DNA of 64,000 nt. It comes from an uncultured Anaerolineales bacterium (GTDB lineage: Bacteria; Chloroflexota; Anaerolineae; B4-G1). This document shows, piece after piece, positions 8,662-29,337 of this stretch. Location of the stretch: contig CAZIWL010000001.1 in assembly GCA_964542755.1 (NCBI GenBank), positions 48,234 through 112,233 of the forward strand, read 5' to 3'. Below the pieces are notes generated by a model, which searched no databases, had not been told where the DNA came from, and worked only from the letters and a program-made list of their open reading frames with translations. Position 1 is the stretch's first letter. Every line of letters begins with the position of its first letter. Made by a program: the position numbers and the translations under genes.

Positions 8662-10746
8662 ATGACTGGAACCGAGACTGACACTCAAGATGTCCTCCGC
8701 CGGCGTGAGCTAGTTTTCCTGGTTATCGTCCTACTCACGGCTACCCTCATGCGGACGTGGCGCTTGGACGCCATCCCTCCCGGGTTGACCCACGATGAGG
8801 CTGGTCACGGACACGACGCGATAGCCATTCTGGAGGGCGCGCGGCCCATCTACCAGACCGTCGGATACGGTCGCGAACCTCTGTACGATTACTGGGTTGC
8901 TGGTCTAATGGCAATTGCTGGACGCACTCGAGAGGTCCTCAGATTCTCTGCCGTTCCGCTGGGACTGGTAACTCTACTGACGACCTTCGCCTGGGCTCGA
9001 GCGGCTTACGACGGGACAGTCGCCCTAGCGGCGACAGCGCTCCAGACGGTTGCTTTTTGGTCGCTCGCGGTCAGCCGGCAGGCTTTGCGCTCCAGTCTGT
9101 TGCCTGTTGTTTTCACAGCAGCTATCTTCTTCTTCTGGCACTCGATCTACCCTACGAGGCGCAGGCTGAGCCCGTGGCGGCTGGGCATCTTCTCGCTGCT
9201 CGTGGGGGCGACGTTTTATACCTACGTCCCGGCTCGAGTACTCTGGATTCTGTTCCCCATTTTCCTTGCTTACCTGGCCATTTTCCATCGAAGGACGTTC
9301 CAGAGGGTCTCCGCGCCCATCCTCGCGGCCGTAGGTGCAGGGTTGCTGATGGGGGTGCCTCTCTTCGTGTTCCTGAAGCGCCATCCCGGAGCGGAGCAGA
9401 GGCTCGCGATGCTGGATGCACCCCTTAGGGCGCTCCTGGCTGGTGATCCCTCCGTCGTCCTCAACCGCGCTGGGCGTTTCCTGGCGGGTCTGACGATCCC
9501 TGGGCGTGGCGACAGTTTTCTAGCCTACACCATTCCGGGCCGTCCCATCTTCGGCCTGCTCACGGGTGTTCTCTTCCTGATCGGGGTTGGACTCTGTGTG
9601 GTACGGTGGCGCGAGCCGAAGAATGCCTTCTCGCTCCTCTGGTTCGCCCTCGGGGTCTCTCCCTCCTTGGTCACTGGTCCGGCCGCCAGTACGACGCGCA
9701 GCGTCGCTGCGCTTCCGGTGATCTTCCTGTTCCCAGCCATCGCGGTTGTCTCTGGGGCCCGATGGGCCTCTGAGCGTTGGGGGAGCGTGGCCTCCTGGGT
9801 GATCGGTCTGGCGGCTGGCGGTCTCCTGCTGGGTGTGGGCGGCGTCACCATCCAAGACTACTTCGTCACCTGGGGTGAGTCTCCCCACACACGCGCAGCC
9901 TATCAGCACACATTGGTTGAACTGGCGGCCTACCTGGACAGCCAACCGGAGGATGGGGTGGTGGGCATCTCAACCGACCAGCCGCTCGCGCCCCACGACC
10001 CTTACGTCTTCCAATTGAGTCTCAAGCGCAGGGATCTTTCTGTCCGCTGGTTTGATGCTCGGCGAGCGATTGTCGTTCCCGAGCGGGCGCGGGCTAGGCT
10101 CGTGATTCCCTCAAGTGCCACGCCCCCGCCGATCCTGGCCGAGCTGCCTGGCCTTCAATGCATGGAGCGTGTGCAAATGCGGACGGACGACCTCGATCCC
10201 TGGTTCGAAGTATTTGAGTGGCAACCCCGGATGACGCGGGCGGAAGTCACCGAGAGGATGGACGACAGTGCGAACGTGTCGGGCGAGGCGGTCCTGTCTG
10301 AAGAGGGGGGGCGAACCTCCCTCGGACTCCCTGCAACTTTTGGGGGCGCTCTGGAGCTTCTGGGCTACGACTTGCTGACACCAGTCGTCGGCGTGGAGGA
10401 GATCCAGCTGTTGACAGTCTGGAAGGCTACGAACCCCGACGCGATCAAGGCGGCGGATCCCGCGGATGTGGAGGACGAACCCGTGGTTTTTGTCCACGCC
10501 CTGGATGGAGAGGGGGCCTTGCTTGCTCAGGAGGACCGGCTCGATGCGCCTGTCTGGAGCTGGGAAGAGGGCGATATGATCCTCCAGATCCATCGCTTGG
10601 CGCTACCGCCCGACCCGGATCACGGCCCTCCCACCCTCTCCCTCGGCGTCTATCGGCGAACTGATATGAGACGACTCCCGGTGACCATCAAGGACAAGGT
10701 GGTCGGGGATTCCCTCTTACTCCCCACGGTGCGGGTCGAGGGCTAG
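8662..10746 (+). CDS. GT-C fold glycosyltransferase, PMT_2/ArnT-like (GT39/GT83-type), paralog 1
   Basis: Polytopic N-terminal domain with a loop-1 motif AIPPGLTHDEAGHG and an EPLY box, plus a C-terminal conserved roughly 120-aa domain. Confidence 0.8.
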   Translation: MTGTETDTQDVLRRRELVFLVIVLLTATLMRTWRLDAIPPGLTHDEAGHGHDAIAILEGARPIYQTVGYGREPLYDYWVAGLMAIAGRTREVLRFSAVPLGLVTLLTTFAWARAAYDGTVALAATALQTVAFWSLAVSRQALRSSLLPVVFTAAIFFFWHSIYPTRRRLSPWRLGIFSLLVGATFYTYVPARVLWILFPIFLAYLAIFHRRTFQRVSAPILAAVGAGLLMGVPLFVFLKRHPGAEQRLAMLDAPLRALLAGDPSVVLNRAGRFLAGLTIPGRGDSFLAYTIPGRPIFGLLTGVLFLIGVGLCVVRWREPKNAFSLLWFALGVSPSLVTGPAASTTRSVAALPVIFLFPAIAVVSGARWASERWGSVASWVIGLAAGGLLLGVGGVTIQDYFVTWGESPHTRAAYQHTLVELAAYLDSQPEDGVVGISTDQPLAPHDPYVFQLSLKRRDLSVRWFDARRAIVVPERARARLVIPSSATPPPILAELPGLQCMERVQMRTDDLDPWFEVFEWQPRMTRAEVTERMDDSANVSGEAVLSEEGGRTSLGLPATFGGALELLGYDLLTPVVGVEEIQLLTVWKATNPDAIKAADPADVEDEPVVFVHALDGEGALLAQEDRLDAPVWSWEEGDMILQIHRLALPPDPDHGPPTLSLGVYRRTDMRRLPVTIKDKVVGDSLLLPTVRVEG

Positions 10747-10760
10747 GGGGCAGTCACACG

Positions 10761-12830
10761 GTGCCACACGCTAAGCCCAGTGGATCACGCTTCCCGCCGT
10801 CGTACCGGCGTGCTGCGATTCTTCTGATCCTGGCCGTGGCCGTCTTCTTCCGTCTGTACCGCCTGGACGCCGTTCCCCCGGGCTTGACCCACGACGAGGC
10901 GGACACAGGCTACTTTGTCGCAGCAGTCCACCGTGGAGCCCCATCGAGAATTGACATTCCGTACGGGTATGCGTACAAACCCTTCACTCAATACTCCGGG
11001 GCTCTTTTCATGGCTTTGTTCGGGCCGACTGATCTTGCGCTCCGTCTACACTCCGCATTCTTCGGCACGCTGCTGGTCCTCTTCACGTATCTTTGGTGCC
11101 GGGAGGCGTTCGGCACGACGGTGGGACTGGGGAGTGCTGCCATGGTGGCCGTGTCGTTTTGGACTGTGTGCGATAGCCGTTTCGCCCTGAACTCAGCGCC
11201 GGCCCCGGCCTTGTTCACTGGGAGCGCGTATTTCCTGTGGCTCGCGCTTAACCGTGACGTTGGCAGGCCCCTCTGGTGGGCCTGGGGCCTCTTCGCTCTC
11301 CTGTTGGGCGGGTCTCTGTACGTCTACGAGGCGGCGTTGGCGGCAGCGTTGTCTCTCATCCTCCTGCTGCTCTATTTGGCCCTAACGGATCCCAAGCTCT
11401 TTCGTCGTCAAGGCCCTTGGTTTGGTGGCGCCCTTATCCTCGCCACGCTGCTAGCTGCACCCCATCTACTCGATTCCTCGTCATGGGGACGGACGAATAC
11501 GCTGTCCGGTCCGCTGCTGGCGGCCAGTCGCGGGGAGCTGGGCCCCCTGTTCAGAAATGCCGTCAGCGCGTTGGGGACCTTCAGTTTTCGCGGAGATACC
11601 CTGGTCACGTACAATCTGCCGGGGCGCCCGATCTTCGATCCGGTGACGAGTCTGTTCTTCTACGGCGGGTTGGCGCTATCGCTCTGGCGTTGGAGAACCC
11701 CTGCCTATGCTTTCCTAGTGATGTGGTTGATGACCGGGATTGTCCCCTCACTCGTCATCGGTGAGTGGACCAGTACGCTGCACAGCAAGGCTGCCGAGAC
11801 AGCGATCATGACCCTGCCCGTGGTCGGTGCTGTTGCCGCCGGTCGCGCCATCCGCGTACATCTCGGGCGGAACTGGTTCAGGCTGTTTGCCGGTGCTTGC
11901 ATCGTCTGGTTGGTCGTGATCGCAGGGCTGACGGGATACGACTATTTCGTCCGCTGGGGGCAGGCGCCGGAGACCCGTGCTGCGTACTTCAGCAATCTGG
12001 CGGCCATCACGGACTACCTGAATGAGATCGACTACAGTGGGCCGGTGTCTCTCTCGTCACCGTTTCCGGATCTCCCTCACGATCCCTTGGTCGCCCAGAT
12101 GCGCCTCCACCGCGAGGATCTGTCGCTGCGCTGGTTCGATGCCCGTCGTGCCCTTGTCTTTCCTCAAGCTGATCATGCGCTACTGATTATACCGCCGAAC
12201 ACGCCGCTGGCTGATCCGTTTGCTGGTCGGCTCGGTCTTCGGTTGGTGGAGCGTGTCGAGTTGAAGCCCGACGACATAGATCCATACTTCGACGTCTTTG
12301 AATGGCCTCCCAACACGGCGCTCTCCGAACTCTTGACGCCGGCATCTGGTATCGCACATGCGGGAGGTGAATCCCTTGAGCTGCCGGTCAGCCTGGGGGG
12401 GGGCGTTGAGCTGGTCGGCTACGAGGTAGCGGAACAACGGCTGGCGCCCGGGGAGACCATCGATCTGATCACTTTCTGGCGACTCAAGGTCGGCGCGGGA
12501 TCTTCATCAAGCCACCCTTTGGGAAACGTGCCTGAGGACGCGTTCGGCCACAGCCTGACCCTATTCACCCACCTGGTTGATGATGGGAACCACGTAGTCG
12601 CCCAGGAGGACCGGCTCGACGCCCCCGCCTGGAACTGGCACGGCGGGGAGACGGTGGCCCAGATCCACCGCCTACAAATCGGTCCCGACGTCGAACCCGG
12701 CGTGTATCATCTCCAGGTGGGGATCTACGACAACCACGACCCGGAACTGGCTCGTCTCCCCATCGTCGTCGACGGCGAAGTGGTCGGCGACAGCGTCCGT
12801 CTCCAACCGCTGGAGGTCACGGATTCGTGA
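10761..12830 (+). CDS. GT-C glycosyltransferase, PMT_2/ArnT-like, paralog 2 (GTG start)
   Basis: AVPPGLTHDEADTG motif, polytopic, with the shared C-terminal domain. Confidence 0.8.
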   Translation: MPHAKPSGSRFPPSYRRAAILLILAVAVFFRLYRLDAVPPGLTHDEADTGYFVAAVHRGAPSRIDIPYGYAYKPFTQYSGALFMALFGPTDLALRLHSAFFGTLLVLFTYLWCREAFGTTVGLGSAAMVAVSFWTVCDSRFALNSAPAPALFTGSAYFLWLALNRDVGRPLWWAWGLFALLLGGSLYVYEAALAAALSLILLLLYLALTDPKLFRRQGPWFGGALILATLLAAPHLLDSSSWGRTNTLSGPLLAASRGELGPLFRNAVSALGTFSFRGDTLVTYNLPGRPIFDPVTSLFFYGGLALSLWRWRTPAYAFLVMWLMTGIVPSLVIGEWTSTLHSKAAETAIMTLPVVGAVAAGRAIRVHLGRNWFRLFAGACIVWLVVIAGLTGYDYFVRWGQAPETRAAYFSNLAAITDYLNEIDYSGPVSLSSPFPDLPHDPLVAQMRLHREDLSLRWFDARRALVFPQADHALLIIPPNTPLADPFAGRLGLRLVERVELKPDDIDPYFDVFEWPPNTALSELLTPASGIAHAGGESLELPVSLGGGVELVGYEVAEQRLAPGETIDLITFWRLKVGAGSSSSHPLGNVPEDAFGHSLTLFTHLVDDGNHVVAQEDRLDAPAWNWHGGETVAQIHRLQIGPDVEPGVYHLQVGIYDNHDPELARLPIVVDGEVVGDSVRLQPLEVTDS

Positions 12831-14860
12831 CTGATCGTCGCCTGTGCAAATGGGCCTTTGTCGTCCTGCTGCTCCTGGTCGCCTGGGGCCTACGGATCGG
12901 TTGGCTGGAGGCAGTCCCTCCCGGCTGGCGTGACGATGAACTGATCAACATCCACGCTCTCTCCAACCGGTTGCTGGAAGGGGAGTTTCCCCTCTACTAC
13001 CTGGGGGCCTCCGGCCACGAACCGCTGTACCATCATCTCCACGCAGGGGTGCTGGGGGTACTCGGGTTCAACGTGTTGAGCGGGCGACTCCTGTCGGCGA
13101 TGTTCGGCACCCTGTCCATCTCCTTGACCTACACCCTGGCCCGCCGCCTCTTCCCCGATGCGCAGGCAGTGGCCAATGTCGCCGCGGCGACATTGGCAGC
13201 GTCCTTCTGGTCTTTGATGTACAGTCGCACGGCCATTCGACACATCAGCCTGCCCCCGTTCATCCTGGCGACGGTTTACGCCTTTTGGCGTCGGCTCGAC
13301 GGCCCGGGATCCAGGCCCTGGGCCTGGATCCCGGTGGGGTTGTTGCTGGCGGCAAGCCTTTACACGTACACCGCCTCGCGGCTTCTCCCTGTTCTTCTGA
13401 TTCTCTTCGTGGGGTACCTGGCGGCTGTCCATCGGCCGCATCTACGCCGGCACTGGCGGGGGATCGGGCTGGCGTTCCTGGTGATGACGGTTCTCGTCGC
13501 CCCGCTCGGCGTGGCCATTCAGCGGGGGCGAAGCACGCGTGCCTTGGAAGGCATCGGGGCCGACGCCCGAGTCACGGAGCTGGCGAAGCCCCTCCGCGCC
13601 CTTCGGGATGGAGATCCATCCCAGCTCTTGGCCTCAGTGGTGAAGACGCTGGGCATGTTCCACGCCAGCGGCGACCCTGAGTGGCTCTACAACATCCCGG
13701 GTCGTCCCATCTTCGGTGTGCTGGGAGGAATCCTCCTCTGGCTCGGCGTGGGGCTCTCTCTCTACCGCTGGCGCGAGCCCCGTTTCTTCTTCTTGATCGT
13801 CTGGTTGGGCATAGGCCTGACGCCGGCTTTCATCAGCACCCCGCCGGCCAGCCTGGGACACACGATCGTCGCGCAGCCGGTGGCCTATCTCATGCCCGCT
13901 GTCGCCCTGGTCGGGATTGGACGATGGGTTGAGGGACAGACGTCAACGCGTGTGTCTCGGGGCCGAGCTACTAGAGGGGCGCGGCGAGCGGCGATAGGCC
14001 TGGTGTTGATTGCCTTCGTGTGCAGCAACGCGGCCCGCGACCTCTGGGACTATTTTGTGGTCTGGCCCCGTCGTGGCATGGTCCGCCTCCTCTACCGCGC
14101 CGATCAGAGGAAGATTGCCGAGTATCTCAACGAGCAAGTCGGCTATACCGACATCGCCGTGGGAAGCGGACTGATGGGCCCGTGGGACCGGATCGCGCTG
14201 ACGGTCGATCTCGAGAGGCCGGATGTGGCACCGAGGCTTTTCCATCCCGAACGGGCCCTAGTCTGGAAGCAAGGAGCGAACCCGATGCCCGTCTTCCTGC
14301 CCGGCTGGCCGGAACCGTCCGACGCCATTGAGGACTCTCTGGCAGGAGGGCGGCTGATATCGGAACATGTGAGTGTCCATACGCCGAGGAAGAGTCTCAC
14401 CTCATCATTCGAGACCGAGGAGGTGACCTTTGCCAACGGGCTGACGCTCCTGGCGGCCCGTCCGTTGCAGCAAGGGCGCGAGCAAGAAACCGTGAGCATC
14501 ATCACCGCTTGGCGTGTCTCCGAACCCCTTGAACTGCCGCCTATGCCCGTTGTGGCGCAGCCTCCCCCGCCGAAGACGTACGCGGGGCCCCGTTTGGCCG
14601 TCTTCGCTCACCTGCTCGGGAAGCAAGGCGAGACGCTTGACGTTGATGATGGGCTATGGGTGGATCCCTTGACGCTTCGACCCGGCGACCGGTTCCTCCA
14701 GATCCACCGTTTCTCCGTCGCCTCGGAGGGTGCATCGGTGCCGTCCGCGCTGGTCGTCGGTCTCTACGACCCAAAGACGGGAGAGCGCTGGCAAACTGTG
14801 GGAGAGGACGGCGGGGCTGGTGCGCATCGAGTCACCATTCCGCTGGGGGACCCTCAGTGA
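12827..14860 (+). CDS. GT-C glycosyltransferase, PMT_2/ArnT-like, paralog 3
   Basis: GTG start overlaps the upstream TGA (GTGA). AVPPGWRDDE and HEPLY motifs, with the shared C-terminal domain. Confidence 0.8.
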   Translation: MTDRRLCKWAFVVLLLLVAWGLRIGWLEAVPPGWRDDELINIHALSNRLLEGEFPLYYLGASGHEPLYHHLHAGVLGVLGFNVLSGRLLSAMFGTLSISLTYTLARRLFPDAQAVANVAAATLAASFWSLMYSRTAIRHISLPPFILATVYAFWRRLDGPGSRPWAWIPVGLLLAASLYTYTASRLLPVLLILFVGYLAAVHRPHLRRHWRGIGLAFLVMTVLVAPLGVAIQRGRSTRALEGIGADARVTELAKPLRALRDGDPSQLLASVVKTLGMFHASGDPEWLYNIPGRPIFGVLGGILLWLGVGLSLYRWREPRFFFLIVWLGIGLTPAFISTPPASLGHTIVAQPVAYLMPAVALVGIGRWVEGQTSTRVSRGRATRGARRAAIGLVLIAFVCSNAARDLWDYFVVWPRRGMVRLLYRADQRKIAEYLNEQVGYTDIAVGSGLMGPWDRIALTVDLERPDVAPRLFHPERALVWKQGANPMPVFLPGWPEPSDAIEDSLAGGRLISEHVSVHTPRKSLTSSFETEEVTFANGLTLLAARPLQQGREQETVSIITAWRVSEPLELPPMPVVAQPPPPKTYAGPRLAVFAHLLGKQGETLDVDDGLWVDPLTLRPGDRFLQIHRFSVASEGASVPSALVVGLYDPKTGERWQTVGEDGGAGAHRVTIPLGDPQ

Positions 14861-17100
14861 CCCGCTCCCAATTTCGATCCCGCCTGGCGTTGGCCATCCT
14901 TCTGGTCGTCTACGTTGGACTTGCAGTGGCATACAGTCTGGTCAACCCGCTCTACGAGGCGCCGGACGAGCTACGCCATGTGCGGTACGTTCGCCACATC
15001 AGCGCGTACCGCAGCCTGCCGGTGCAGCGGGCGGGGGCGCCTCGCGCTCAGAGCCATCATCCACCACTCTACTACGCCCTGGGTGCTCTGGTCTCGGGTT
15101 GGGTCGACGTAGAGGATGACGTCTACTATCAGCCCGTCGAAAACCCGTTTTGGGCCTACCGCTACTGGGAAGTCGGCAACGACAACAAGAACCAGTACCT
15201 CCACGGGCCTACTCGTCGCTTGGGCCCCCTGTCCATCCCACGCATGACCGGCATTACCCTGGTCGTCTACCTGGTTCGCTGGATCACGGTTCTCGTCGGC
15301 GCCGGTGTTGTGTGGCTGACGTACCGAATTGGTGTCCATGTCTTTCCCGAACGGCCGGGGCTGGCCGTGGGAGGCGCCGCCCTTGTAGCCTTCAACCCGC
15401 AGTTCTTGTACCTGTCCGGAGCGGTCAACAACGATGTCCCTGCCGCGCTGTGGGGGGCGGCTGTGCTCGTCGTCTCGCTTGACGTCCTCTCTCAGGGGCC
15501 CAGACTGGCGACCAACATCCTACTCGGTGTGCTTTTCGGCCTGGCGATGTTGACCAAGATCCACCTCGTCGTCCTCTTCGTACCCATCGTGCTGGCCCAC
15601 GGCATGGCTCTGTGGCGAGACCGGGATTGGCGTGACTTCCTACGGACCAATATCATCGTGATTGGTCTGGCTCTGCTTGTCTCCGGCTGGTGGTTCGCGC
15701 GGAATCAGATGCTGTACGGCGATCCCTTGGGGGCCAGCGTTCACAGCCAGCTCTGGAACAGCCGCTCTCCCTCCGACGGCTGGTGGGCTCTCCGGCAGGA
15801 ACTGCCCTATCTGTGGAGCACCCTTTGGGGACGGTTTGGTTACGGTCAAGTGGCACTGCCCAGTTTGGTCTATCACGGCCTATTGGTCTTCTGTGGCGTG
15901 TCTCTGGCCGGATACCTAGTGCCGCGAGATAGGTCCCTGCGATCCCGTCCAGCAGGTCTTCTGGTGAGCACAGTCGCGGTGTTCGTGGCCTGGGTCCTTT
16001 TCTACACGCTCGTGCAGCCGGCCGGTGCTCGTGGGAGGTTCCTTTTCCCGGCTCTGCCCGCCTTCGGTATGCTGACCGTGGGTGGGCTGCAGCGATTCTC
16101 CCCCTTCCGCAACGGATGGTTGACGACGGCGATCACCGGTGTGGGCATGGCTGCCCTCGCCCTGTACGCATTGGGATGCGTTCTCGCACCGGCGTTCTCG
16201 CCGCCCCGCCCCTTGAGCGAGCCCCAGATCCAGGCCGTGCCGAATCCCGTCGGTGCCGACTTCCGGTCTAGCCACGGGAGCCCGGACGGAGCCGTCGTCA
16301 AGATGCTGGGGCACCAGGTGGCCCCAGTCGACATCACCCCAGGGGACGCGGTCGAGGTGACCGTGTACTGGAAGGTTATGACGCGCACCGAGCAGAATCA
16401 CGTGGTGTTCGTTCATCTGATGAGCGAGACGGGGGTCATCATCGCACAACGCGATACCTATCCCGGGCTGGGGCGCTATCCGACCAGTGTGTGGGACCCC
16501 GGAACCGTTTTCGCCGACACGTATCGGATCCACGTTCCAGAGACAGCCTATGCACCGGACCATGGTTACGTGCAGGTCGGCCTGTACGTGCCTGACGGGC
16601 CACGGCTGACCACGGAGGGAGGCGAGGACGCGCTTCAACTGGCTTCTGTGGAGGTGCATCCGCGGCCCGGAGACGTACCCAACCCCATGGAGTTGAACTT
16701 CGGTGACAAGGTGGCGCTGGTCGGATACAGCCTGGACCAGCGCGTCGTTCAGCCGGGTGAGACGATCGGCTTGACGCTGCATTGGCTGGCGCTGAATCCG
16801 ATGGACGTCAACTACGACGTGTTTGTCCACGTTTTGGGCGCCGAGAACCAGATCTGGGGAAATACCAACAGCCCGCTGACCGATCGTGCTGTGTGTACCA
16901 ATCGGTGGAAGCCGGGAACTCTGGTGAGGGAGGAACGGGAGCTCACCGTGTCCGAGGGCACCCCGGCAGGCTTCTATGATTTGGAGCTGGGCCTGCACTC
17001 GTCACCCCACGGACGTCTGAAGGTCCTCAATGAGGAGGGGCGTCCAGTGGCCAATCGCATGCTGTTGACCAAGATACGGGTTACCAATGGGGACAGGTGA
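14857..17100 (+). CDS. GT-C glycosyltransferase, PMT_2-like, paralog 4, with two copies of the C-terminal domain
   Basis: In-frame GTG at 14857 overlaps the upstream stop. APDELRH and HHPPLYYAL motifs. The listed ORF start at 14656 lies inside the previous gene and is rejected. Confidence 0.75.
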   Translation: MTRSQFRSRLALAILLVVYVGLAVAYSLVNPLYEAPDELRHVRYVRHISAYRSLPVQRAGAPRAQSHHPPLYYALGALVSGWVDVEDDVYYQPVENPFWAYRYWEVGNDNKNQYLHGPTRRLGPLSIPRMTGITLVVYLVRWITVLVGAGVVWLTYRIGVHVFPERPGLAVGGAALVAFNPQFLYLSGAVNNDVPAALWGAAVLVVSLDVLSQGPRLATNILLGVLFGLAMLTKIHLVVLFVPIVLAHGMALWRDRDWRDFLRTNIIVIGLALLVSGWWFARNQMLYGDPLGASVHSQLWNSRSPSDGWWALRQELPYLWSTLWGRFGYGQVALPSLVYHGLLVFCGVSLAGYLVPRDRSLRSRPAGLLVSTVAVFVAWVLFYTLVQPAGARGRFLFPALPAFGMLTVGGLQRFSPFRNGWLTTAITGVGMAALALYALGCVLAPAFSPPRPLSEPQIQAVPNPVGADFRSSHGSPDGAVVKMLGHQVAPVDITPGDAVEVTVYWKVMTRTEQNHVVFVHLMSETGVIIAQRDTYPGLGRYPTSVWDPGTVFADTYRIHVPETAYAPDHGYVQVGLYVPDGPRLTTEGGEDALQLASVEVHPRPGDVPNPMELNFGDKVALVGYSLDQRVVQPGETIGLTLHWLALNPMDVNYDVFVHVLGAENQIWGNTNSPLTDRAVCTNRWKPGTLVREERELTVSEGTPAGFYDLELGLHSSPHGRLKVLNEEGRPVANRMLLTKIRVTNGDR

Positions 17101-19639
17101 GACCGCAGGCGACCGGCTGCAAGGAGTGGACGGCTTGCTCGCGCTGGCGTATCTCGGGGTCGCGGCGGCGACCACCTGGCCCCTCGTCCGCCACCTGACG
17201 AACGCTCTCCCAGGGCGCACATTGGACGCCCACATCCACTACTGGAATGGCTGGTGGGTTGGGGAGGCGCTGCGCCAGGCACAGACCCCTTTCTTCACTC
17301 GCAACCTGTTCTTCCCCCGGGGTGTATCCCTGGTCTTTCACAACTTCGCCTGGATACACATCCTGGAGTGGCTCGGGCTGCGAACGATGGTTGGGGGCAT
17401 CACGGCCTACAACTTGGCCTTCCTCCTTAACCTGGCGCTCTGCGGCTGGGCCGCTTTCCTCCTCGTACGCCATCTCACCCACGACAGACGGGCGGCTTTC
17501 CTGGGAGGGCTGATCTACCAGTGCTGGCCCTATCGCATGGCCCAGCTCGACCATCCGAATCTGATCAGCACGTATGCCATACCCCTGTTCTTGTACTTCC
17601 TCCTGCGCACGCTTCGCGAACAGGAATGGCAGGCAGGTCTCCTGACCGGCTTCTTCTTCGCCCTGACCGGTTACACTCGATGGCAGCTTCTGATCCCAGC
17701 ATCCATCATTGGGACGTTCATCCTCCTGTTCACCGTCCCGCATGTCTGGGCCTGCCGCCGTGATTGGTTGCGTCCCATGCTCCTTGGTGCTGGGGTGACG
17801 TTGCTAGCCCTGACACCTCCGGCGCTGCTCTTCGGCACGGAGTGGCGGACCACCTCGACGGAGCTCGTGAAGGAGGTGGATGAAGCGGCACTCCAGACCG
17901 ATGTGATGGCATATCTGACGCCGGGTGCAGATCATCCGGTCTTCGGGGCTGTGACCGGGCCTGCGTACGAGCGTTACTATGGAGACCGCAGTGGAGGTCG
18001 GCGGTTTCCGGCATACTTGGGCCTTACGGCCATAGTGCTAGCGGCCCTGGGTGCTCTGCGGAGGCCGCGGGAGGCCCTTCCCTGGTTGCTTGCGGCGGCC
18101 CTGATGGTTGCGCTGGCTCTCGGACTCAATCTGCGCGTCAACGGGCGACTATACCCGGCACTCCCAATGCCCTATCGCCTGTTCAAAGAAGCTTTCATCG
18201 TACGTCTTGTACGCTTCCCGGATCGATTCAGCCTTTTCACGGCTCTGCCGATGGCCGTATTGGCCTCATACGGAGCCTCATATGCCATGGGTGTCTTCCA
18301 CCGCCGGACCGGGAGGTCGCCGCTGGTCGTTGCCGCCCTGGTCACGCTTTTGGTTTTCGGCGAGTTCTTGGCAATCCCTGTCCCGCTGCAAGAGTCTCGA
18401 GGGTCTCCAATCCACGCACTGCTCGCCGCTGACGTGGATGACTTCGGCATCTTGAACGTGCCCGTCGATGCGCAGACGTGCAAGCGATACATGTTCGAGC
18501 AGACGCTTCATCAGCGCCCGATCCTCCAGGGGCACGTATCCCGTCTGCCGCTGGACGCGTACGACTATCTCGATGGACAACCGCTGTTGAAGAAGCTGCG
18601 TCAGTTCGATGAGCTGGATCCTCGGCTCACGGACGTCAGCGGGCAGTTGCACTCCCTGGCCAGGGACGACGTGAATTACCTCGTTCTCCATAAGCGAGAC
18701 GTCGGGGCCGGCCGTCTGGCCCGTTGGCGACGCTATCTCCTATCAAGGCCCCGATACGAGGACGACGACATCGCTGTCTTCTCGACCTCCCCTGTCGGCG
18801 GCGAGGATTTCGAGCTGATGGAAGAGCTGGCGACCGGACTTGGGCCAGTTCGGATCGAAGGTGCAGAGGCGTGCGCGAACCCGGGTGACAGCCTGCCGAT
18901 CAATGTGGGTTGGGGGACCGCGGAGTCGCCCGGTCAGGACCTGGTTCTGCAATTGGCACTGCTTTCTCACGATGGCGAGGTGGCGCAGGCGTCTGAACAC
19001 CAGGTATCCTCTGGCTGGTCAACGAGTGATTGGCCTGCCCACACTCTAGTCTGGGGATATTACGTTGTGCCCCTGGATGTCTCGCTACCACTGGATTCCT
19101 ACCGAATGCGGCTCGGTCTAATTGACGGGCAAACCGGAGCGATGTCCGGTCCCTCAATGACCGTCGGCACGGTGAGAATCACGGAGTCCCAGTGCTCTGG
19201 CTCGATCCCGGCGGGGGCGATGCCGGTGAACGCTCTGTTTGACGACGCCCTGCGTCTGCTGGGTTACAGGATCCATCGAGAGGAGGGGCAGTTGCGGCTC
19301 ACACTGCACTGGCGCTCCCAGCGGACGATGGACGTGGACTACAAGGTCTTTGTTCACGTCTTCGATCTCACCTCCGGTCAGCCGGTGGCTCAGGACGACG
19401 CCATGCCCCGGCGGTGGCGGTTACCCACCACGCTGTGGTATCCTGGACAACGTGTGGAGGATGAGATCCCTATCGATATGCAGGGCGTCGTCCCCGGAAC
19501 GTACGGCGTCGCCGTGGGGGTGTATGACCCGGATACTACGGAGCGGCTGACGGTCGTGAATGCCGGGAGCGGCTTTGCTCAAGACGGGCGACTGATCCTG
19601 TCTGGAGAGACCGTCAGGGTTGTCGAGGAGGACAGATGA
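17087..19639 (+). CDS. large polytopic membrane protein, a distinct GT-C-like family (PTPS-related or YfhO-like), with two copies of the shared C-terminal domain
   Basis: Overlaps the upstream gene by 14 nt, has more than 10 predicted TM helices, and carries the recurring ..VFVHV.D...G..VAQDD.. domain twice at its C-terminus. Confidence 0.7.
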   Translation: MGTGETAGDRLQGVDGLLALAYLGVAAATTWPLVRHLTNALPGRTLDAHIHYWNGWWVGEALRQAQTPFFTRNLFFPRGVSLVFHNFAWIHILEWLGLRTMVGGITAYNLAFLLNLALCGWAAFLLVRHLTHDRRAAFLGGLIYQCWPYRMAQLDHPNLISTYAIPLFLYFLLRTLREQEWQAGLLTGFFFALTGYTRWQLLIPASIIGTFILLFTVPHVWACRRDWLRPMLLGAGVTLLALTPPALLFGTEWRTTSTELVKEVDEAALQTDVMAYLTPGADHPVFGAVTGPAYERYYGDRSGGRRFPAYLGLTAIVLAALGALRRPREALPWLLAAALMVALALGLNLRVNGRLYPALPMPYRLFKEAFIVRLVRFPDRFSLFTALPMAVLASYGASYAMGVFHRRTGRSPLVVAALVTLLVFGEFLAIPVPLQESRGSPIHALLAADVDDFGILNVPVDAQTCKRYMFEQTLHQRPILQGHVSRLPLDAYDYLDGQPLLKKLRQFDELDPRLTDVSGQLHSLARDDVNYLVLHKRDVGAGRLARWRRYLLSRPRYEDDDIAVFSTSPVGGEDFELMEELATGLGPVRIEGAEACANPGDSLPINVGWGTAESPGQDLVLQLALLSHDGEVAQASEHQVSSGWSTSDWPAHTLVWGYYVVPLDVSLPLDSYRMRLGLIDGQTGAMSGPSMTVGTVRITESQCSGSIPAGAMPVNALFDDALRLLGYRIHREEGQLRLTLHWRSQRTMDVDYKVFVHVFDLTSGQPVAQDDAMPRRWRLPTTLWYPGQRVEDEIPIDMQGVVPGTYGVAVGVYDPDTTERLTVVNAGSGFAQDGRLILSGETVRVVEEDR

Positions 19640-21627
19640 GCCGAGGAGGGACGTGGGCACTCCTCACCTTGATTCTGCTACTAGCGGCCGTGCTCCGCTG
19701 TTGGAGTCTCGGGGACGTGCCTCCGGGGCTGAGCCACGACGAAGTGGCCAATGGCTTGATCGCTCGCCAGATCCTGGGCGGCCATCACGCCATCTATTTC
19801 ACCCGGGCTTATGGACACGAGCCGCTGTATCAGTACGTCCAGGCAGGAACGGTGGCACTCTTCGGGGAGCATTGGCTCGGGCTGCGCTGGCCCTCCTTCG
19901 CCTTTAGCCTCCTGGGCCTGGCTTCCGTCTATTCGCTGATGAGGCGCTTGTTCAGCCGTGCCGTCGCGCTGATGACCATCTCTGGCCTGACCATCGGGTT
20001 CTGGCCTTTGTTCTACGCCCGGGTCGGTATCCGGGCCATCAGCCTGCCGTTTATCGGTGCCCTGGCTGCCTATTGCCTGGTTCGCACGTTGGATCGGGAA
20101 TCCGACACCTCTGTCCTCGGCATCCCTTGTCACGTCCTGGGAGGGCTCCTCCTGGGGTTGAGTCTCTACACGTACATGGCTGCGCGCGTGCTGCCCTTCG
20201 TCCTGGCAGCCTTTGTCCTCCACCGGGCCTTGATCTCCCGGGAGAGAGACCTCCCCTGGGTTCGAGTGCTCGTCCTCTTTCTGGCAGCAGCTCTGATTGC
20301 CTCGCCGCTTCTGGTGTGGCTGGCCCGTCATCCCGGCGCTGAGTACCGGATTGCCGAGGTCCGTCGGCCGCTGGACCAACTGCTGACCGGGGACCCCTCC
20401 CTGGTCTGGCACAATCTAGTTGCCAACTTCGGCTTTTTCGCGATCACCGGGGATCCTTGGCCGCACCAGGGCATCCCCGGACGACCGGTCTTCGCAGAGC
20501 CCGTGGGGGCGGCGCTCTTCTACATGGGGCTGGGTATCGCCATCTGGCGCTGGCGCACGCCGCGGTTCGGCTTCCTCCTCATCTTCCTGGTGGGTGGACT
20601 CCTGCCCAGCATTCTGAGCGCCCACGCGCCTCCCGGCCTTGTCTCCGACGCGCCCAGCTCGGTGCGGAATGTGCTGGCCCAGGTGGTCGTCTTCGTCTTC
20701 CCGGCGTTGGCACTCACTGAGAGCTGGCGGTGGCTTCGGAGACGGCTGGACAAGCAAGGGGCGGTGCTCTCCAGAGCGCATCGCGTGGCGGTGGTCGCGG
20801 CGTTGCTGCTGCCATCTCTGTTGCTAACCGTGGGTGACTACTACGTCCGGTGGCCGCGCCGCGAGGATGTCCAGTACTTCTACCAGGCTGACCTGACGGC
20901 TGTGGGCCACCATCTGGACGCCCTCGGTCACCACAGTGCCGTCACTGTTGGGGGACTCTCTGTCGACTCGATGGATCGACCGACGCTGGCCTTCACCGCT
21001 CGGGCGAGTGTGCAGGACGTACGACTCTGCGATGTCCGCGAGACGCTCGTGATCCCTGTTGGCCTGGGGGCGCACGTGCTAGTGCCCCACGTTGTCCCGT
21101 TTGGCGAGGGACAGCCCTTGCGTGACCGGCTGGCTTCGTGGTCCACGGTTCAGGTCGCTGACCGTTTCGACGCCTATGGGCTGGGGGACAGAGAGGTATT
21201 GGATCGCCACATTGGGGGCCTGGATCAGGGTGCGCACCTACCCGATGGCACGCCGGTGGCGCTGCCTGCCTTCTTCTCCAACCGACTTGCCCTGGTTGGA
21301 TATGAGCGAGTACCCCAGCTCGAGAGTGGCTCCGTCGGCCTGTTGACGTACTGGCGCGTCGAGGACCCCCCTTATGGTCAACTGAAGGCCTTCGTCCACC
21401 TGGTGAGAGAGGGGCAGCTGGTCGCACAGGATGACGGACTGGCCAGCCCGGCGGAGGGTTGGTCTAGTGGTGACCTTGTTGTTCAGCACCACGTGCTGAC
21501 GGCGCCGTCGGGTACGCCGCCCGGCCTTTACGCCCTGGAACTGGGATTGTATAATCCCTCGACCCTGGAGCGGCTTACCATCGCAGGTCATGATCGGGTG
21601 CTCTTGAATCCGGTGACCCTCCCATGA
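19636..21627 (+). CDS. GT-C glycosyltransferase, PMT_2/ArnT-like, paralog 5
   Basis: ATGA start/stop overlap, DVPPGLSHDEVANG and GHEPLYQY motifs, with the shared C-terminal domain. Confidence 0.8.
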   Translation: MSRGGTWALLTLILLLAAVLRCWSLGDVPPGLSHDEVANGLIARQILGGHHAIYFTRAYGHEPLYQYVQAGTVALFGEHWLGLRWPSFAFSLLGLASVYSLMRRLFSRAVALMTISGLTIGFWPLFYARVGIRAISLPFIGALAAYCLVRTLDRESDTSVLGIPCHVLGGLLLGLSLYTYMAARVLPFVLAAFVLHRALISRERDLPWVRVLVLFLAAALIASPLLVWLARHPGAEYRIAEVRRPLDQLLTGDPSLVWHNLVANFGFFAITGDPWPHQGIPGRPVFAEPVGAALFYMGLGIAIWRWRTPRFGFLLIFLVGGLLPSILSAHAPPGLVSDAPSSVRNVLAQVVVFVFPALALTESWRWLRRRLDKQGAVLSRAHRVAVVAALLLPSLLLTVGDYYVRWPRREDVQYFYQADLTAVGHHLDALGHHSAVTVGGLSVDSMDRPTLAFTARASVQDVRLCDVRETLVIPVGLGAHVLVPHVVPFGEGQPLRDRLASWSTVQVADRFDAYGLGDREVLDRHIGGLDQGAHLPDGTPVALPAFFSNRLALVGYERVPQLESGSVGLLTYWRVEDPPYGQLKAFVHLVREGQLVAQDDGLASPAEGWSSGDLVVQHHVLTAPSGTPPGLYALELGLYNPSTLERLTIAGHDRVLLNPVTLP

Positions 21628-21928
21628 GTGCAGGCGAGATTTCTCCCCGGGATGATATCCTTTCCGTGCTTCGGTATCCAGAGGTGTGCGCGACCAGAGT
21701 ATGGTGTGCGCGAGGGTGGAAGACCACGGATTCCTTTGAGGCCGTGAGTCGCCGGTCTCCGCGCTGCCGACGTAGAGGCTTTGAGCTCAATCGAGGGAGC
21801 GATGAGTCGTGGATCGATGATTGCGCTGTGGGAACCGCCGGCAAGGGGCGTCACAGAGAGGCTGCCTCCTATCCAAATGCCGGAACCCAGGTCGACGCAG
21901 GACGGCTGTCCCGGCACGGGGGCATATC

Positions 21929-23602
21929 GTGAGCCTTGAGAGATCGGAGAGAGAGCGAAGCAGCGGAATCCGCGTTGCGCAGCGCTTCGCACCCCGCTGG
22001 GCCGTGGTGGCGCTGCTGCTCCTCTCGTGGGGTTTGGGGTTAACCAGTCTGGTCCAGAAGTCGGCGACGATGGACGAGCAGAACCACATTGCCCGCGGCG
22101 CTGCCTACCTGGGCACTGGCGATCCCCGGCTCAGCGTCGAGCACCCACCCTTGGTCAATGTGCTCAGTGCCCTCCCTGCCCACCTGCTCCTCGATCTCCA
22201 TCTTCCTCTCGACCAGTGGTGGGAGGCTGGCGAATGGTATCACTTCGCCGACAACTTCCTTTGGCAGGCGAACCAGCGTGCCGATCTCATTGTCTTCCTG
22301 GCTCGCCTGCCCGTCATGGGCTTGGGACTGTTGTTGGTCTCCCTCATCTTCCGTTGGGGGCGAGATCTGTTCGGCCCCTGGGGAGGCACGCTTGCTGCCG
22401 CCTTCTGCGCCCTGGATCCCAACATCCTCGCTCACCAGCGGCTGTCGACAACGGACCTCGGGGGGACGTTCTTTGCCGTACTGGCTGCCTACGCCTTCTG
22501 GTGCCTCTCCCGTCGTCTAACGCCGGGTCGGCTGGTGGTCGCCGGTCTGGCACTCGGCCTTGCCTTCGCGGCCAAACTCTCAGCGCTCATCTTCGGGCCT
22601 ATCCTCGCCCTGTCCTTCCTGCTGGCGGGCCTCGCCGAGCGAGAGGAGCGTGTCCGGCGCCTTTCGGGCCGCGCGGCGATGGCTGCCGTGGCAGTCGTCT
22701 TCTCACTTTTCGTGGTCTGGGCCAGCTACCTCTTCCGGCTGGAGCCAGTTGAGGGACTCCGATGGCCCGTGCCAGCCCCCCCATACATCCGGGGCATACG
22801 GGCCGTACTCAATCTGGCGGGTGGAGGACGCCCCGGTTATCTGCTGGGCGAGACCAGCACAGAGGGCTGGTGGTACTATTTCCCGGTCGCCCTGGCCGTC
22901 AAAACGCCGCTGCCAACCCTACTGGGCTTGATTCTGGCTACGGTCGCGCTGGCACGCCGACCTAGATCGGGGGATGTGTTTGTTGCCGTCCCGCCGCTGT
23001 TGTTTTTCGCAGCCCTTACCACGGCGCGGCTCAACCTTGGTTACCGTCACCTGCTGCCTGTGCTTCCGTTTTTCGCGCTGCACATCGGGCGCCTGGCCGA
23101 ACCCTCGGTCTGCTGGTTCAGGCGACGCGACCCGGCTCGACTCGCCGCTCTCCTGCTCACCGCCTGGCTCGGCGTCGGAACGCTTGTGCTGTACCCTCAT
23201 TTCCTGGCTTTCTTCAACACCATCGGTGGTGGGCCGGAGAATGGCTGGCAGGTCTTGGTCGACTCAAACATTGATTGGGGGCAGGATCTGATCGGCCTCC
23301 GGCGGTGGATGGAGCAAGAAGGCGTCGATTGCGTCCGGCTCGGCTGGTTCGGGAGCGCCCCCCCGGAAGCGTACGGCGTCCGTCACGAGCTCCTGCCGGG
23401 GTTGCCCCACGGCTATGAGCTGTGGCGCGACCCACCGGTCGACCTTGACCAGCCCGAGCCTGGTGTATACGCTATCAGCGTCACCAATCTGGTGGGCGCC
23501 GTGCTTCCAGATCCCGCGCTCTATAGTTGGTTCTTGGGATGTGAGCCTGATGCTCGGATTGGCTATTCTATCTTCATCTACCGGGTGGAAGAAGGACGAT
23601 GA
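21929..23602 (+). CDS. GT-C glycosyltransferase, PMT_2-like, paralog 6 (short form without the shared C-terminal domain)
   Basis: EHPPLVNVL motif. A TM segment precedes the first ATG, so a GTG at 21929 (GGGGG RBS 6 nt upstream) is proposed. The start is uncertain. Confidence 0.6.
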   Translation: MSLERSERERSSGIRVAQRFAPRWAVVALLLLSWGLGLTSLVQKSATMDEQNHIARGAAYLGTGDPRLSVEHPPLVNVLSALPAHLLLDLHLPLDQWWEAGEWYHFADNFLWQANQRADLIVFLARLPVMGLGLLLVSLIFRWGRDLFGPWGGTLAAAFCALDPNILAHQRLSTTDLGGTFFAVLAAYAFWCLSRRLTPGRLVVAGLALGLAFAAKLSALIFGPILALSFLLAGLAEREERVRRLSGRAAMAAVAVVFSLFVVWASYLFRLEPVEGLRWPVPAPPYIRGIRAVLNLAGGGRPGYLLGETSTEGWWYYFPVALAVKTPLPTLLGLILATVALARRPRSGDVFVAVPPLLFFAALTTARLNLGYRHLLPVLPFFALHIGRLAEPSVCWFRRRDPARLAALLLTAWLGVGTLVLYPHFLAFFNTIGGGPENGWQVLVDSNIDWGQDLIGLRRWMEQEGVDCVRLGWFGSAPPEAYGVRHELLPGLPHGYELWRDPPVDLDQPEPGVYAISVTNLVGAVLPDPALYSWFLGCEPDARIGYSIFIYRVEEGR

Positions 23603-25659
23603 CGCTGTGGACGGATGCTGGAAGCGACGCCCGTCGGCGAGCTGAGCTCTGGCTGATGGTCGGTATCCTCCTCGTCGGCACCTTCTTTCGCTTCCTCTCT
23701 CCGACCACTGTGCCACCGGGCCCCTCGCATGATGAGCTGAGAATGATGCAGTTGGGTGAGCTAATCGTCGACGGCGAGCGTCCCCTCCACTGGAAAATCA
23801 GCTATAGTGCCGAGCCTCTGTACATGTACTTCCTCGCCTTCGCGATGAGGATCTGGGGTTTCACCCCGTTCGCCGCCCGCCTGGTAACCCGCTTCGCGGG
23901 ACTTCTCCTTGTGGCCGGAACCCATCACTTGATCAGACGGCTCTTCGGACGGCCGACAGCGCTTCTCACAAGCGGGGTCATGGCTATTAGCTGGTGGCCT
24001 CTCTTCTTCAGTCGGGTGGCCCTACGGGGTCTCACACTCCCTTTGTTCTTCACCGCGGCTGTCTTCTGCCTGTGGGTGGGCTTGGACCTGGGGCGACGCA
24101 CGCGGGGACACCGGAGTGCGCATCTGCGTTGGGGCTGGCTCGTCACGGGTGCAGCCCTGGTCGGGCTCACTTGGTACACGTTCACGGGGGCTCGCAGCAC
24201 CAGCCTCCTCCTGCCCATCCTGCTCCTCTATCTTGGGGCACTTGGGATTCTGCCCCAGCATCAGCTGTGGCGGGTTACTGTGGTGACGCTGGTCGTTGCG
24301 GGACTGGTAATCGCCCCTTTTGTCTATGAAGTGACAGTTCACCCGGGAACTGCTGAGACCCGCCTGGATCAGCTTGGCGGAATCATTGAGGCCCTAAAAT
24401 CTGGCAATCCTCTTCCATTCGCCAGAGAGGTGGCGAATACCCTGGGCGTGTTTGTGCTGACGGGCGATCCCAACTGGCGGTACAATCTGTCGGGGCGTCC
24501 GCCATTCGGTCCCGGTCTCGGTTTTCTCGCCTCGCTAGGTTTCGTGGTCAGTCTCTTCCGATGGCGGCAACCGCGTTTCTTCCTGCTCGTGGTCTGGACT
24601 CTGTTAGGGCTCTCTCCGGCCATGCTCACCCCCGAGGCTCCTAGTTTCGTTCGAGGGATAGGCGCGCTGCCGGCGATTGTCGTTTTCCCAGCCGTGGGGG
24701 CGATCGCGCTCTGGGATTGGTCCGTGTCTGGAATCGGGTGGAGAGTGCGTCGCCTCGCGATCCTGGTCGTTGTCCTTCTCCTCGCTCTCAACGGACTCGA
24801 CGTGTTCCGCGACTACTTCCTGACCTGGCGCACCCAGCCCCAGGTCCACGAGATCTACCAGACCGCGCTGACCGAGGCATTTCGAGATCTGAGTCACAGC
24901 CATCTGACGGGGGAGATATGGGTCTCTGAGCCCTTCCCCGACGATCGGCACCTGCTGCTGGCTGATCGGATGCTCCGTCGCGAGGAGATCGACCTGCGCT
25001 GGTTCGACGCAGAGCGAGGGCTCATTCTCCCGCCCGCGGAGGGTTCCCGACGCTATCTTATCCCTGGTTTCGTCGAGCCCGATGGAGCACTCTTCAGCCG
25101 GTGGATGGGGGAGACCGTCACGCTACTGCGGGGAGACCCACCCCCTGGGGCTCCCTCCTACCATCTCTATCAGGTCACGGGCGGGCCAAGGATAGAACGC
25201 GAACTGTCGGACATCGCGGTGCAATCCACGGCATCGCTCGATCTACAGGGAGATAGACCGCTGTCCCTGCCCATTCATTTCAGTGAGAGGGCGCATCTGA
25301 TGGGCTACGAGCTCGACGACGCGGTCGTCAACGTCGGGGGCGAGGTGCGGCTGGTTGTCTACTGGCGGGTCGCCGGTCCCGTGTATGAACCCCTGGCGAG
25401 CTTTGCCCATCTGATTGATAGCCAGAACGGCGTGGTTGGACAGTATGACGGCTTTGATGTCCCGCCCTGGCACTGGAAACCTGAAGCCATTGTCGCCCAG
25501 ATCTATCGCTTCCGCGTCGGGGAGGCAGCACAACCCGGTGAGCACTGGCTTGAGGTAGGGCTGTATCGCGCGGACACGATGGAGCGGGTGCCAGTGGTAG
25601 ACGACGCCGGCACCTCGCTGGGAGACCGTGTCGTGCTGCCTAGCGTGATGGTGAAATAG
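23599..25659 (+). CDS. GT-C glycosyltransferase, PMT_2/ArnT-like, paralog 7
   Basis: ATGA overlap with the upstream gene, TVPPGPSHDE and AEPLYMY motifs, with the shared C-terminal domain. Confidence 0.8.
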   Translation: MTLWTDAGSDARRRAELWLMVGILLVGTFFRFLSPTTVPPGPSHDELRMMQLGELIVDGERPLHWKISYSAEPLYMYFLAFAMRIWGFTPFAARLVTRFAGLLLVAGTHHLIRRLFGRPTALLTSGVMAISWWPLFFSRVALRGLTLPLFFTAAVFCLWVGLDLGRRTRGHRSAHLRWGWLVTGAALVGLTWYTFTGARSTSLLLPILLLYLGALGILPQHQLWRVTVVTLVVAGLVIAPFVYEVTVHPGTAETRLDQLGGIIEALKSGNPLPFAREVANTLGVFVLTGDPNWRYNLSGRPPFGPGLGFLASLGFVVSLFRWRQPRFFLLVVWTLLGLSPAMLTPEAPSFVRGIGALPAIVVFPAVGAIALWDWSVSGIGWRVRRLAILVVVLLLALNGLDVFRDYFLTWRTQPQVHEIYQTALTEAFRDLSHSHLTGEIWVSEPFPDDRHLLLADRMLRREEIDLRWFDAERGLILPPAEGSRRYLIPGFVEPDGALFSRWMGETVTLLRGDPPPGAPSYHLYQVTGGPRIERELSDIAVQSTASLDLQGDRPLSLPIHFSERAHLMGYELDDAVVNVGGEVRLVVYWRVAGPVYEPLASFAHLIDSQNGVVGQYDGFDVPPWHWKPEAIVAQIYRFRVGEAAQPGEHWLEVGLYRADTMERVPVVDDAGTSLGDRVVLPSVMVK

Positions 25660-28353: not shown

Positions 28354-29337
28354 ATGAATAGGCGTGCGCTCAACATCCTACGTGTGGTGATCAGCGTCGG
28401 AGCACTGGTCTTCCTCTTCTGGAAGGTCGTCAATCCTGATGAGACGTTGGGTGCTCTCGGTCAAGCCAACGTTCGTTATCTACTGCTGGCCCTCGGTCTC
28501 TACATCTCCAGCCTCGTGATCCGCGCCTTCCGCTGGTTTCTCCTCCTGCGAGGCCTCCACCTTCAGGTCTCGTTTTTCCGCCTAGTACGCCTCTACTTCA
28601 TCGGGCAGTTCTTCAGCAGCTTTCTACCCACTCAGTTCGGCGGGGACGTGATGCGCGCCTTGGAGCTGACCGAGGATACTGAGTCACCGGCCGCCGTCGG
28701 CACCGTCCTGTTGGACCGGATGACGGGTCTTCTCGTGTTGCTCCTGATGGGGCTGGCGGCCCTCCCGTTCCTGGCCGGACGAATGGAGCCGTGGCTCGTT
28801 TGGTTGCTGGTGGGCGTGGCTGGCGGCGGTCTTGTCGGCGGTGCCTTGGTGCTGGAGGGACGTTTCCTTCGATATCTGACCTCGTGGCTTCCCTCTAAGG
28901 TCAGCCTGAGCGGTGAAGGGGCTCTGGCCCAAATCTACGCCGCAGTGACCGGGTGCGGATGGAGGGCCGTCGCTGGTGCCTTCGGGGTCTCTGTGGTATT
29001 CAACCTGATCAACATCCTCATCAACTGGCTGTGCGGCATGGCCGTCGACGTGGGAGTAGGTCTCGGCTACTTCTTCATTGCCAGCCCCCTTCTGTCCGTA
29101 TCCGGAATGATACCCTCTATCGGTGGATGGGGTGTCCGCGAGGCCGTGAGCGCCGCGGTATTCTCCCCAATCGGCGCCGATGCTGACGTGGCTACAGCCC
29201 TGGCCATCTCGATCGGAGGCGTGACCCTGGCCACGGGACTTCTAGGAGGGTTCGTCTACGGCATCGAGCAGGTCCGTGGACTGCTGGGATCGCGAGGCAA
29301 CAAGCAGGCTGATCCAGGTGATCACGAGCTCCGGTAA
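28354..29337 (+). CDS. lysylphosphatidylglycerol-synthase-TM-region / flippase-like (UPF0104) membrane protein
   Basis: About 8 TM helices and a conserved FRWFLLLRGLHL..GQF.S motif typical of TIGR00374-type proteins. Confidence 0.75.
   Translation: MNRRALNILRVVISVGALVFLFWKVVNPDETLGALGQANVRYLLLALGLYISSLVIRAFRWFLLLRGLHLQVSFFRLVRLYFIGQFFSSFLPTQFGGDVMRALELTEDTESPAAVGTVLLDRMTGLLVLLLMGLAALPFLAGRMEPWLVWLLVGVAGGGLVGGALVLEGRFLRYLTSWLPSKVSLSGEGALAQIYAAVTGCGWRAVAGAFGVSVVFNLINILINWLCGMAVDVGVGLGYFFIASPLLSVSGMIPSIGGWGVREAVSAAVFSPIGADADVATALAISIGGVTLATGLLGGFVYGIEQVRGLLGSRGNKQADPGDHELR

Follow-up and report, generated by a model that had tools for sequence, protein, structure and literature searches.

Seven of eight tandem genes for putative glycosyltransferases of the GT-C fold in an uncultured Anaerolineales bacterium encoded proteins that ended in a recurring domain of 120-145 amino acids (aa), which had no name in the family libraries searched (Pfam, NCBIfam). 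The genes were located in a stretch of 64,000 nucleotides (assembly GCA_964542755.1, contig CAZIWL010000001.1, positions 48,234 to 112,233), referred to below as the window; all coordinates were positions in this window and the proteins were labelled A-H in gene order. Nine copies of the domain were found in proteins A, B, C, D, E, F and H: one each in A, B, C, F and H, two in D, a clear and a diverged copy in E, and none in G. Structure models predicted an immunoglobulin (Ig)-like, E-set type beta-sandwich of two sheets, which followed an alpha/beta linker domain and would lie on the outside of the cytoplasmic membrane. For this tail, a part in carbohydrate binding or as a ruler was plausible.

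The GT-C gene array and its recurring C-terminal domain

The eight genes occupied positions 8662-25659 of the + strand, and neighbouring genes abutted or overlapped by a few bases:

8662..10746, +, gene A: GT-C (PMT_2-like), 694 aa, one C-terminal copy; PMT_2 22.9 bits, below cutoff
10761..12830, +, gene B: GT-C, 689 aa; PMT_2 match 1.5e-10
12827..14860, +, gene C: GT-C, 677 aa; PMT_2 match 2.4e-9
14857..17100, +, gene D: GT-C of another subtype, 747 aa with a GTG start at 14857, two copies; PMT_2 and PMT matches
17087..19639, +, gene E: GT-C of a third subtype, 850 aa, diverged and canonical copy; PMT_2 match 1.5e-6
19636..21627, +, gene F: GT-C, 663 aa; modelled full-length
21821..23602, +, gene G: GT-C without the domain; open reading frame (ORF) of 593 aa from TTG; PMT_2 match 1.1e-10
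23599..25659, +, gene H: GT-C paralog, 686 aa; no Pfam match; full-length paralog of A, B, C and F

Proteins B, C, D, E, F and G scored 29-44 bits against Pfam PMT_2 (PF13231; cutoff 26.1), protein A was just under this cutoff, and H had no match. Orthologs were named 'glycosyltransferase family 39 protein' or 'ArnT family glycosyltransferase' in the databases. According to these sequence comparisons, the host proteins were GT-C fold glycosyltransferases of the PMT_2/GT39-like kind with a multi-helix membrane module, and their catalysis was putative. The GTG start of gene D agreed with its ortholog in a related array (L002), which was 745 aa long and had an identical 4-base overlap with the preceding gene. 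The L002 ortholog of G was 552 aa long, and therefore the true start of gene G probably lay downstream of the TTG.

The domain copies were assigned as follows:

10324..10743, +, copy A: residues 555-694; leave-one-out 87.2 bits
12390..12827, +, copy B: residues 544-689; insertion of about 20 aa after the second long strand; leave-one-out 95.2 bits
14423..14857, +, copy C: residues 533-677; most diverged single copy; leave-one-out 49.2 bits
16285..16659, +, copy D1: residues 477-601; leave-one-out 44.5 bits
16684..17097, +, copy D2: residues 610-747; leave-one-out 66.7 bits
18839..19186, +, copy E1: residues 585-700; strongly diverged; profile score 0.5-3.5 bits
19223..19636, +, copy E2: residues 713-850; leave-one-out 62.4 bits; copy modelled alone
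21259..21624, +, copy F: residues 542-663; leave-one-out 83.2 bits
25270..25656, +, copy H: residues 558-686; leave-one-out 101.4 bits

With the C-terminal 135 aa of E as the query, phmmer matched D in two segments and B, C, F and H in a single segment each, and iteration brought in A. To remove circularity, the profile hidden Markov models (HMMs) were rebuilt without the protein being tested, and 500 shuffles of each tail served as a control. The left-out copies scored between 44 and 101 bits, as opposed to at most 11.4 bits for the shuffled tails, and protein G gave no match in any of the HMM searches, including the leave-one-out ones. An earlier note, made from the sequence alone, had reported the module in six of the eight proteins; these scores, together with the lack of a match in G, raised the number to seven. 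The range that the note had given (10380-19639) covered the copies of A-E only, and those of F and H lay outside it. The module itself was confirmed as real, and the consensus motif that had been written down for it was reproduced by the consensus of 128 sequences. Similarity by composition only, named beforehand as the outcome that would speak against a shared domain, was not what the shuffled tails indicated. Practically no chance was left to compositional or accidental similarity in view of the leave-one-out scores, the 23,855 sequence clusters matched at E ≤ 1e-10 (see below) and the confidently predicted fold.

The proteins encoded at 14857 and 17087 had been proposed to carry two copies each. 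For D this was correct for both copies; for E it held clearly for the second copy, and the first was strongly diverged. We took E1 as a diverged copy of the domain because three comparisons agreed. Namely, hhalign placed an alignment of E1-like segments collinearly on a canonical profile from which E2 had been left out (probability 91%, P 9e-7), BLASTP paired D 474-747 with E 571-850 collinearly across both copies (E 2.9e-13), and the orthologs of E in two other genomes repeated the pair of a weak and a strong copy.

Comparison of the host proteins by BLASTP indicated how the domain was distributed among them. A, B, C, F and H were mutual paralogs along their entire length (28-35% identity), so their common tail was part of a whole-protein paralogy. 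D and E matched these five proteins over the tail only (last 120-290 residues), and since this domain was all that they had in common with the other five, we considered it modular. Protein G had no match to the other seven (E threshold 1e-3). Behind the conserved Trp of the second long strand, copies B and C, and less markedly A, had 10-25 additional residues that were absent from the other copies. These residues may form a variable loop close to the putative binding face.

Predicted fold and comparison with known systems

The AlphaFold2 model of E2, based on an alignment of 128 sequences, was all-beta with about nine strands and one short helical turn, and it reached a mean predicted local distance difference test score (pLDDT) of 94 and a predicted template modelling score (pTM) of 0.87. 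This agreed with the soluble beta-rich module that had been anticipated for the tail. The model of full-length F (124 sequences; pLDDT 92, pTM 0.89) contained 11 transmembrane helices that extended to about residue 408, followed at about 410-540 by short helices together with an alpha/beta domain and at 545-662 by the beta-sandwich. We derived the topology from the model helices and a count of positively charged residues. The short loops on the cytoplasmic side held 14 Lys and Arg residues and the short outer loops held 3, and both long loops of F fell outside, as expected for GT-C enzymes. One of them, the first outer loop, held H34-D35-E36, which was nearly invariant among the 124 sequences. 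From the model and the positive-inside rule, the last 255 residues of F, and hence the domain, were predicted to be extracytoplasmic. The host proteins shared the PMT_2/GT39/ArnT-like membrane module and this predicted topology, and H34-D35-E36 was a candidate for the acidic catalytic motif of the first outer loop.

The tail corresponded to no family in Pfam or NCBIfam; the earlier note had likewise left the domain without a name. Searches of the eight full-length proteins against Pfam-A 2025 and NCBIfam 20.0 gave no C-terminal match. When copies D1, D2, E1, E2, F and H were scanned singly against Pfam-A 2025 at E up to 10, the only result was a chance-level match to Imm7 (E 0.14, copy F). A profile search of the Protein Data Bank (PDB) sequences returned only chance-level matches, to an obscurin-like Ig domain (E 0.027) and to anosmin. 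Precomputed annotation of F-type orthologs listed PF13231 (in one case also PF04886) and nothing on the tail. Among the 128 alignment members, sub-threshold Pfam matches to E-set families were found for TcfC (9), DUF4832 (8), Wzt_C (4), ML (4) and NPCBM_assoc (3). Our literature search found no description of this domain or of GT-C arrays in Chloroflexota.

Foldseek searches of the PDB with the model placed the carbohydrate-binding domains of Wzt among the top-ranked structures (8dl0 and 6o14 with E 4-5e-4; 2r5o with a TM score of 0.59). The likeness to the Wzt_C structures (2r5o, 5hno, 6o14, 7k2t, 8dl0) lay in the Foldseek match of the predicted fold, at a sequence identity of 9-14%. The curated threshold of Wzt_C (PF14524) was reached by no member; the best of the four sub-threshold matches had E 0.0063, E2 was without a match, and none of the six window copies scanned singly matched this family. 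It has been reported that the C-terminal domain of Wzt binds the capped terminus of the O-antigen (PMC9445017). The Wzt domain is cytoplasmic, dimeric and follows an ATPase (PMC9445017), whereas the domain described here was predicted to be extracytoplasmic and followed a GT-C module. The Ig-like domains of glycoside hydrolase family 2 (GH2; for instance 7rsk, 6hpd and 3cmg) were 7-18% identical to it, and neither the six window copies scanned singly nor the 128 members matched Pfam Glyco_hydro_2. In GH2 enzymes, which are soluble hydrolases, these domains occupy internal positions and are not known to bind a ligand, whereas the domain in the array was C-terminal on GT-C proteins.

The architecture had also been likened to the Emb/Aft arabinosyltransferases and to the MIR domains of protein O-mannosyltransferases (PMTs). 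The general architecture, a GT-C module with a beta-rich tail, was indeed shared with Emb/Aft; homology to the carbohydrate-binding modules (CBMs) of Emb/Aft or to MIR was rejected. GT-C enzymes with accessory carbohydrate-binding tails are known, such as EmbC (PMC3044687), and in both EmbC and AftD a GT-C membrane module is likewise combined with beta-rich accessory domains outside the cytoplasm, by which the acceptor glycan is bound (PMC3044687; bioRxiv 10.1101/2019.12.22.885152). The lectin-like fold of EmbC C-terminal subdomain II and of the AftD CBMs was not found in the domain. There was no MIR match in Pfam either, and the domain was a C-terminal two-sheet sandwich as opposed to a beta-trefoil in a luminal loop. 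The accessory part of PMTs is a loop-borne MIR beta-trefoil, and that of TMTC and TMEM260 consists of TPR repeats. To our knowledge, the characterised ArnT and PMT enzymes are without this tail.

Distribution, conserved residues and genomic neighbourhood

The domain belonged to a large family and was highly frequent in metagenomes of Chloroflexota. A profile search over 1.84 billion cluster representatives (50% identity) found 32,583 proteins at E ≤ 1e-3, 23,855 at 1e-10 and 8,957 at 1e-30, with a search profile of 208 positions that included some sequence upstream of the domain. The family as a whole had one to four tandem copies; the 150 best matches had 2-4, and in these the domain ended at most 20 residues from the C-terminus (median 2). 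The hosts in the database were PMT_2, TMEM260-like/DUF2723 and PTPS_related membrane proteins. Since they spanned several GT-C subtypes, the domain appeared mobile as well as modular. All matches that had a taxonomic name were from Chloroflexota (Anaerolineae, Anaerolineales or Caldilineales), a breadth that rested on a few named matches, all from the top of the rankings, so that the domain may also be present elsewhere. A scan of genome contigs with F found one Anaerolineales metagenome-assembled genome (MAG) only, and no match was obtained when 72,556 plasmids were searched by tblastn with a last copy close to the consensus.

Two related arrays, on a JGI contig (62% identical to F) and in an Anaerolineales MAG (54%), had the same gene order and the same number of copies per gene. 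Namely, there were two copies in the D type, one weak and one strong copy in the E type, and none in the G type. Because order and copy number were kept in these relatives, the paralogs were likely to be old and individually maintained. Both relatives had an extra GT-C paralog of 694-695 aa with the domain between F and G (L002 12056-14140; L001 ORF from 5640). The window was without this paralog, and the only sizeable gap of its array (21628-21940) was at that place. Two further loci held short ORFs with the domain. In an Anaerolineae MAG (DATDPU010000048.1, L004 4005-6474), a PMT_2 gene of 668 aa without the domain was followed, with an 11-base overlap, by a 157-aa ORF (P0043) that consisted of the domain alone (109.8 bits); this was either a frameshifted gene or a case where the domain was supplied as a separate protein. 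In a Caldilineales MAG, a short domain-bearing ORF (P0035, L003 6001-6555) was close to TMEM260_N and DUF2079 genes.

Alignment of 446 domain copies from 150 multi-copy proteins separated the last copy of each protein from those in the middle. The frequencies of the conserved residues, numbered as in the E2 segment, were:

F43: last copy 0.98; middle copies 0.21
H45: last copy 0.95; middle copies, Q commonest, 0.32
Q57: last copy 0.97; middle copies, E commonest, 0.30
D59: last copy 0.99; middle copies 0.27
W72: last copy 1.00; middle copies 0.99
E76: last copy 0.93; middle copies 0.66
D80: last copy 0.99; middle copies 0.60
G99: last copy 0.99; middle copies 0.37
Y101: last copy 0.99; middle copies 0.26
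R108: last copy 1.00; middle copies mostly gapped (gap 0.53)

Thus, the near-invariant set of H45, Q57, D59, W72, E76, D80, Y101 and R108 was kept by the last copy, and most of these positions, with W72 kept, were eroded in the middle copies. The middle copies retained W30 (0.96), W72 (0.99), G92 (0.94) and Y94 (0.77), and first copies were intermediate in conservation between the last and the middle ones. In the window, E2 retained the conserved set and E1 had lost the equivalents of H45 and D59. D1 retained the full set, and D2 had the equivalents of Q57, D59 and Y101 replaced. Copies A, B, F and H had a variant set in which Q and H replaced D80 and Y82, and copy C had lost the equivalents of Q57 and W72. 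In F, the eight positions of the set corresponded to H588, Q598, D600, W609, D613, Q617, Y639 and R646. Among the 124 sequences related to F (its orthologs together with A, B, C and H), W573, H588, D600, Q617, G637 and R646 were invariant or nearly so. As a sequence pattern, one conserved copy with degenerate copies in each protein would be the expected look of a binding module on a stalk.

Directly after the array, at 26007-28253, was a gene for a DUF11 protein of 748 aa with a hydrophobic N-terminal segment, two DUF11 repeats and weak Ig-like matches. On account of these three features, we considered it a candidate surface protein and a possible acceptor. It was followed by an LPG_synthase_TM family membrane protein (28354-29337) and, further downstream, by housekeeping genes for a SpoU methylase, PheS/PheT and the DNA polymerase III delta subunit. 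Two envelope-related genes encoded a 670-aa protein with an InhA-like MAM domain (38876-40888) and, on the opposite strand, a YkuD L,D-transpeptidase with a TPR repeat (40949-42079). The gene at 45472-47412 encoded a SelB-type selenocysteine-specific elongation factor with GTP_EFTU and SelB winged-helix domains, and therefore the organism probably uses selenocysteine. A run of C1 genes of the tetrahydromethanopterin (H4MPT)/methanofuran type occupied 48733-63346 on the + strand and included:

48733-50328, +: DUF2193
54166-55026, +: Mpt_N, N-terminal domain of methylene-H4MPT dehydrogenase
55026-56210, +: ATP-grasp_3
56544-57818, +: molybdopterin-oxidoreductase-like protein, resembling formylmethanofuran dehydrogenase subunit B
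57815-59455, +: Amidohydro_3 protein, resembling formylmethanofuran dehydrogenase subunit A
59492-60862, +: DUF6513 and pterin-binding protein
61406-62374, +: GHMP kinase
62390-63346, +: Ftr, formylmethanofuran-H4MPT formyltransferase

Possible roles of the domain

The role that we favoured was binding of the acceptor, because of the repeated match to Wzt_C and the conserved polar and aromatic residues that set the last copy apart. The hosts would be polyprenyl-phosphate-sugar-dependent GT-C enzymes of several subtypes, and the copy that retained the residue set would be the ligand-binding unit. It may capture or position the acceptor for the active site within the membrane; this acceptor would most likely be a glycan or glycoconjugate of the envelope. 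Degenerate copies such as E1 may serve as spacers that set the distance from the membrane. Such a mode would resemble that of the CBMs of Emb/AftD and of the Wzt C-terminal domain at the O-antigen end. The eight paralogs could then each contribute one step, either consecutive or alternative, to the synthesis of a single envelope glycan, every enzyme with a tail of its own. We gave this putative arrangement, a conserved copy that holds the acceptor and degenerate copies that act as spacers, about an even chance. Several observations weighed against it. The best fold matches were the GH2 Ig-like domains; in D it was the first copy, not the last, that held the full residue set; and the remainder of the 64-kb window contained no GT2 donor synthase or other glycan gene and no identified acceptor.

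The GH2 matches would also suit a purely structural Ig-like spacer or stabiliser that has no ligand of its own and braces the periplasmic alpha/beta domain or sets the height above the membrane. However, such a spacer would not need eight near-invariant polar and aromatic residues (0.93-1.00) in one copy per protein, and each tail-bearing protein of the window had at least one copy with most of this set, which made the structural explanation unlikely. Ig-like domains commonly mediate protein contacts, so the domain could instead recognise a protein acceptor, such as the putative DUF11 surface protein encoded downstream, or link the paralogous GT-C enzymes in an assembly line. In support of this, the eight paralogs were co-encoded with overlapping stop and start codons, and the gene for the putative DUF11 cell-surface protein came after the array. 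GT-C enzymes of the PMT type O-mannosylate proteins. In eukaryotes, Ig-like IPT domains are mannosylated by TMEM260 (PMC10214176). Nevertheless, G was without the domain although it was part of the same array, and the domain occurred on many GT-C subtypes in differing contexts; we therefore regarded a protein-contact module as rather improbable.

An ML-like lipid-binding sandwich would hold, at the outer leaflet, a polyprenyl chain belonging either to the donor or to a lipid-linked acceptor. Foldseek matches in the PDB to NPC2, MD-1, MD-2, the GM2 activator and RhoGDI (E 4e-4 to 3e-3), as well as the four of 128 members with sub-threshold matches to Pfam ML (PF02221; best E 0.068), pointed in this direction. 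On the other hand, the TM scores were low, at 0.37-0.46 in most cases and 0.49 for bovine NPC2, the conserved residues were polar or charged rather than of the type that lines a hydrophobic cavity, and the conserved copy of tandem proteins was separated from the membrane domain by the greatest length of chain. Lipid binding thus seemed very unlikely.

Acceptor binding by the conserved copy also has a bolder form, in which the domain would be the founding member of a large, so far undescribed glycan-binding family specific to the Chloroflexota envelope. The conserved copy would then be a distal capture site that binds the growing wall or sheath polymer, and the 0-3 degenerate copies would, as a molecular ruler, determine how far this site is from the GT-C active site in the membrane. 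We thought this version improbable; if it were true, each paralog would be assigned to a particular depth or chain length.

GT-C enzymes build envelope glycans and glycoproteins, and how their acceptors are selected and held is often unclear. Accessory beta-sandwich domains on such enzymes are already known, so the domain described here introduces no new principle. It is, nonetheless, an abundant (more than 30,000 clusters) unnamed accessory domain attached to GT-C proteins of several subtypes, in a phylum about whose envelope chemistry little is known. Being soluble, confidently modelled and expressible alone, it could be used as a probe for the ligand and for the product of a conserved array of 8-9 genes. 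The domain merits a family entry, with which thousands of 'glycosyltransferase family 39' annotations would describe the whole protein.

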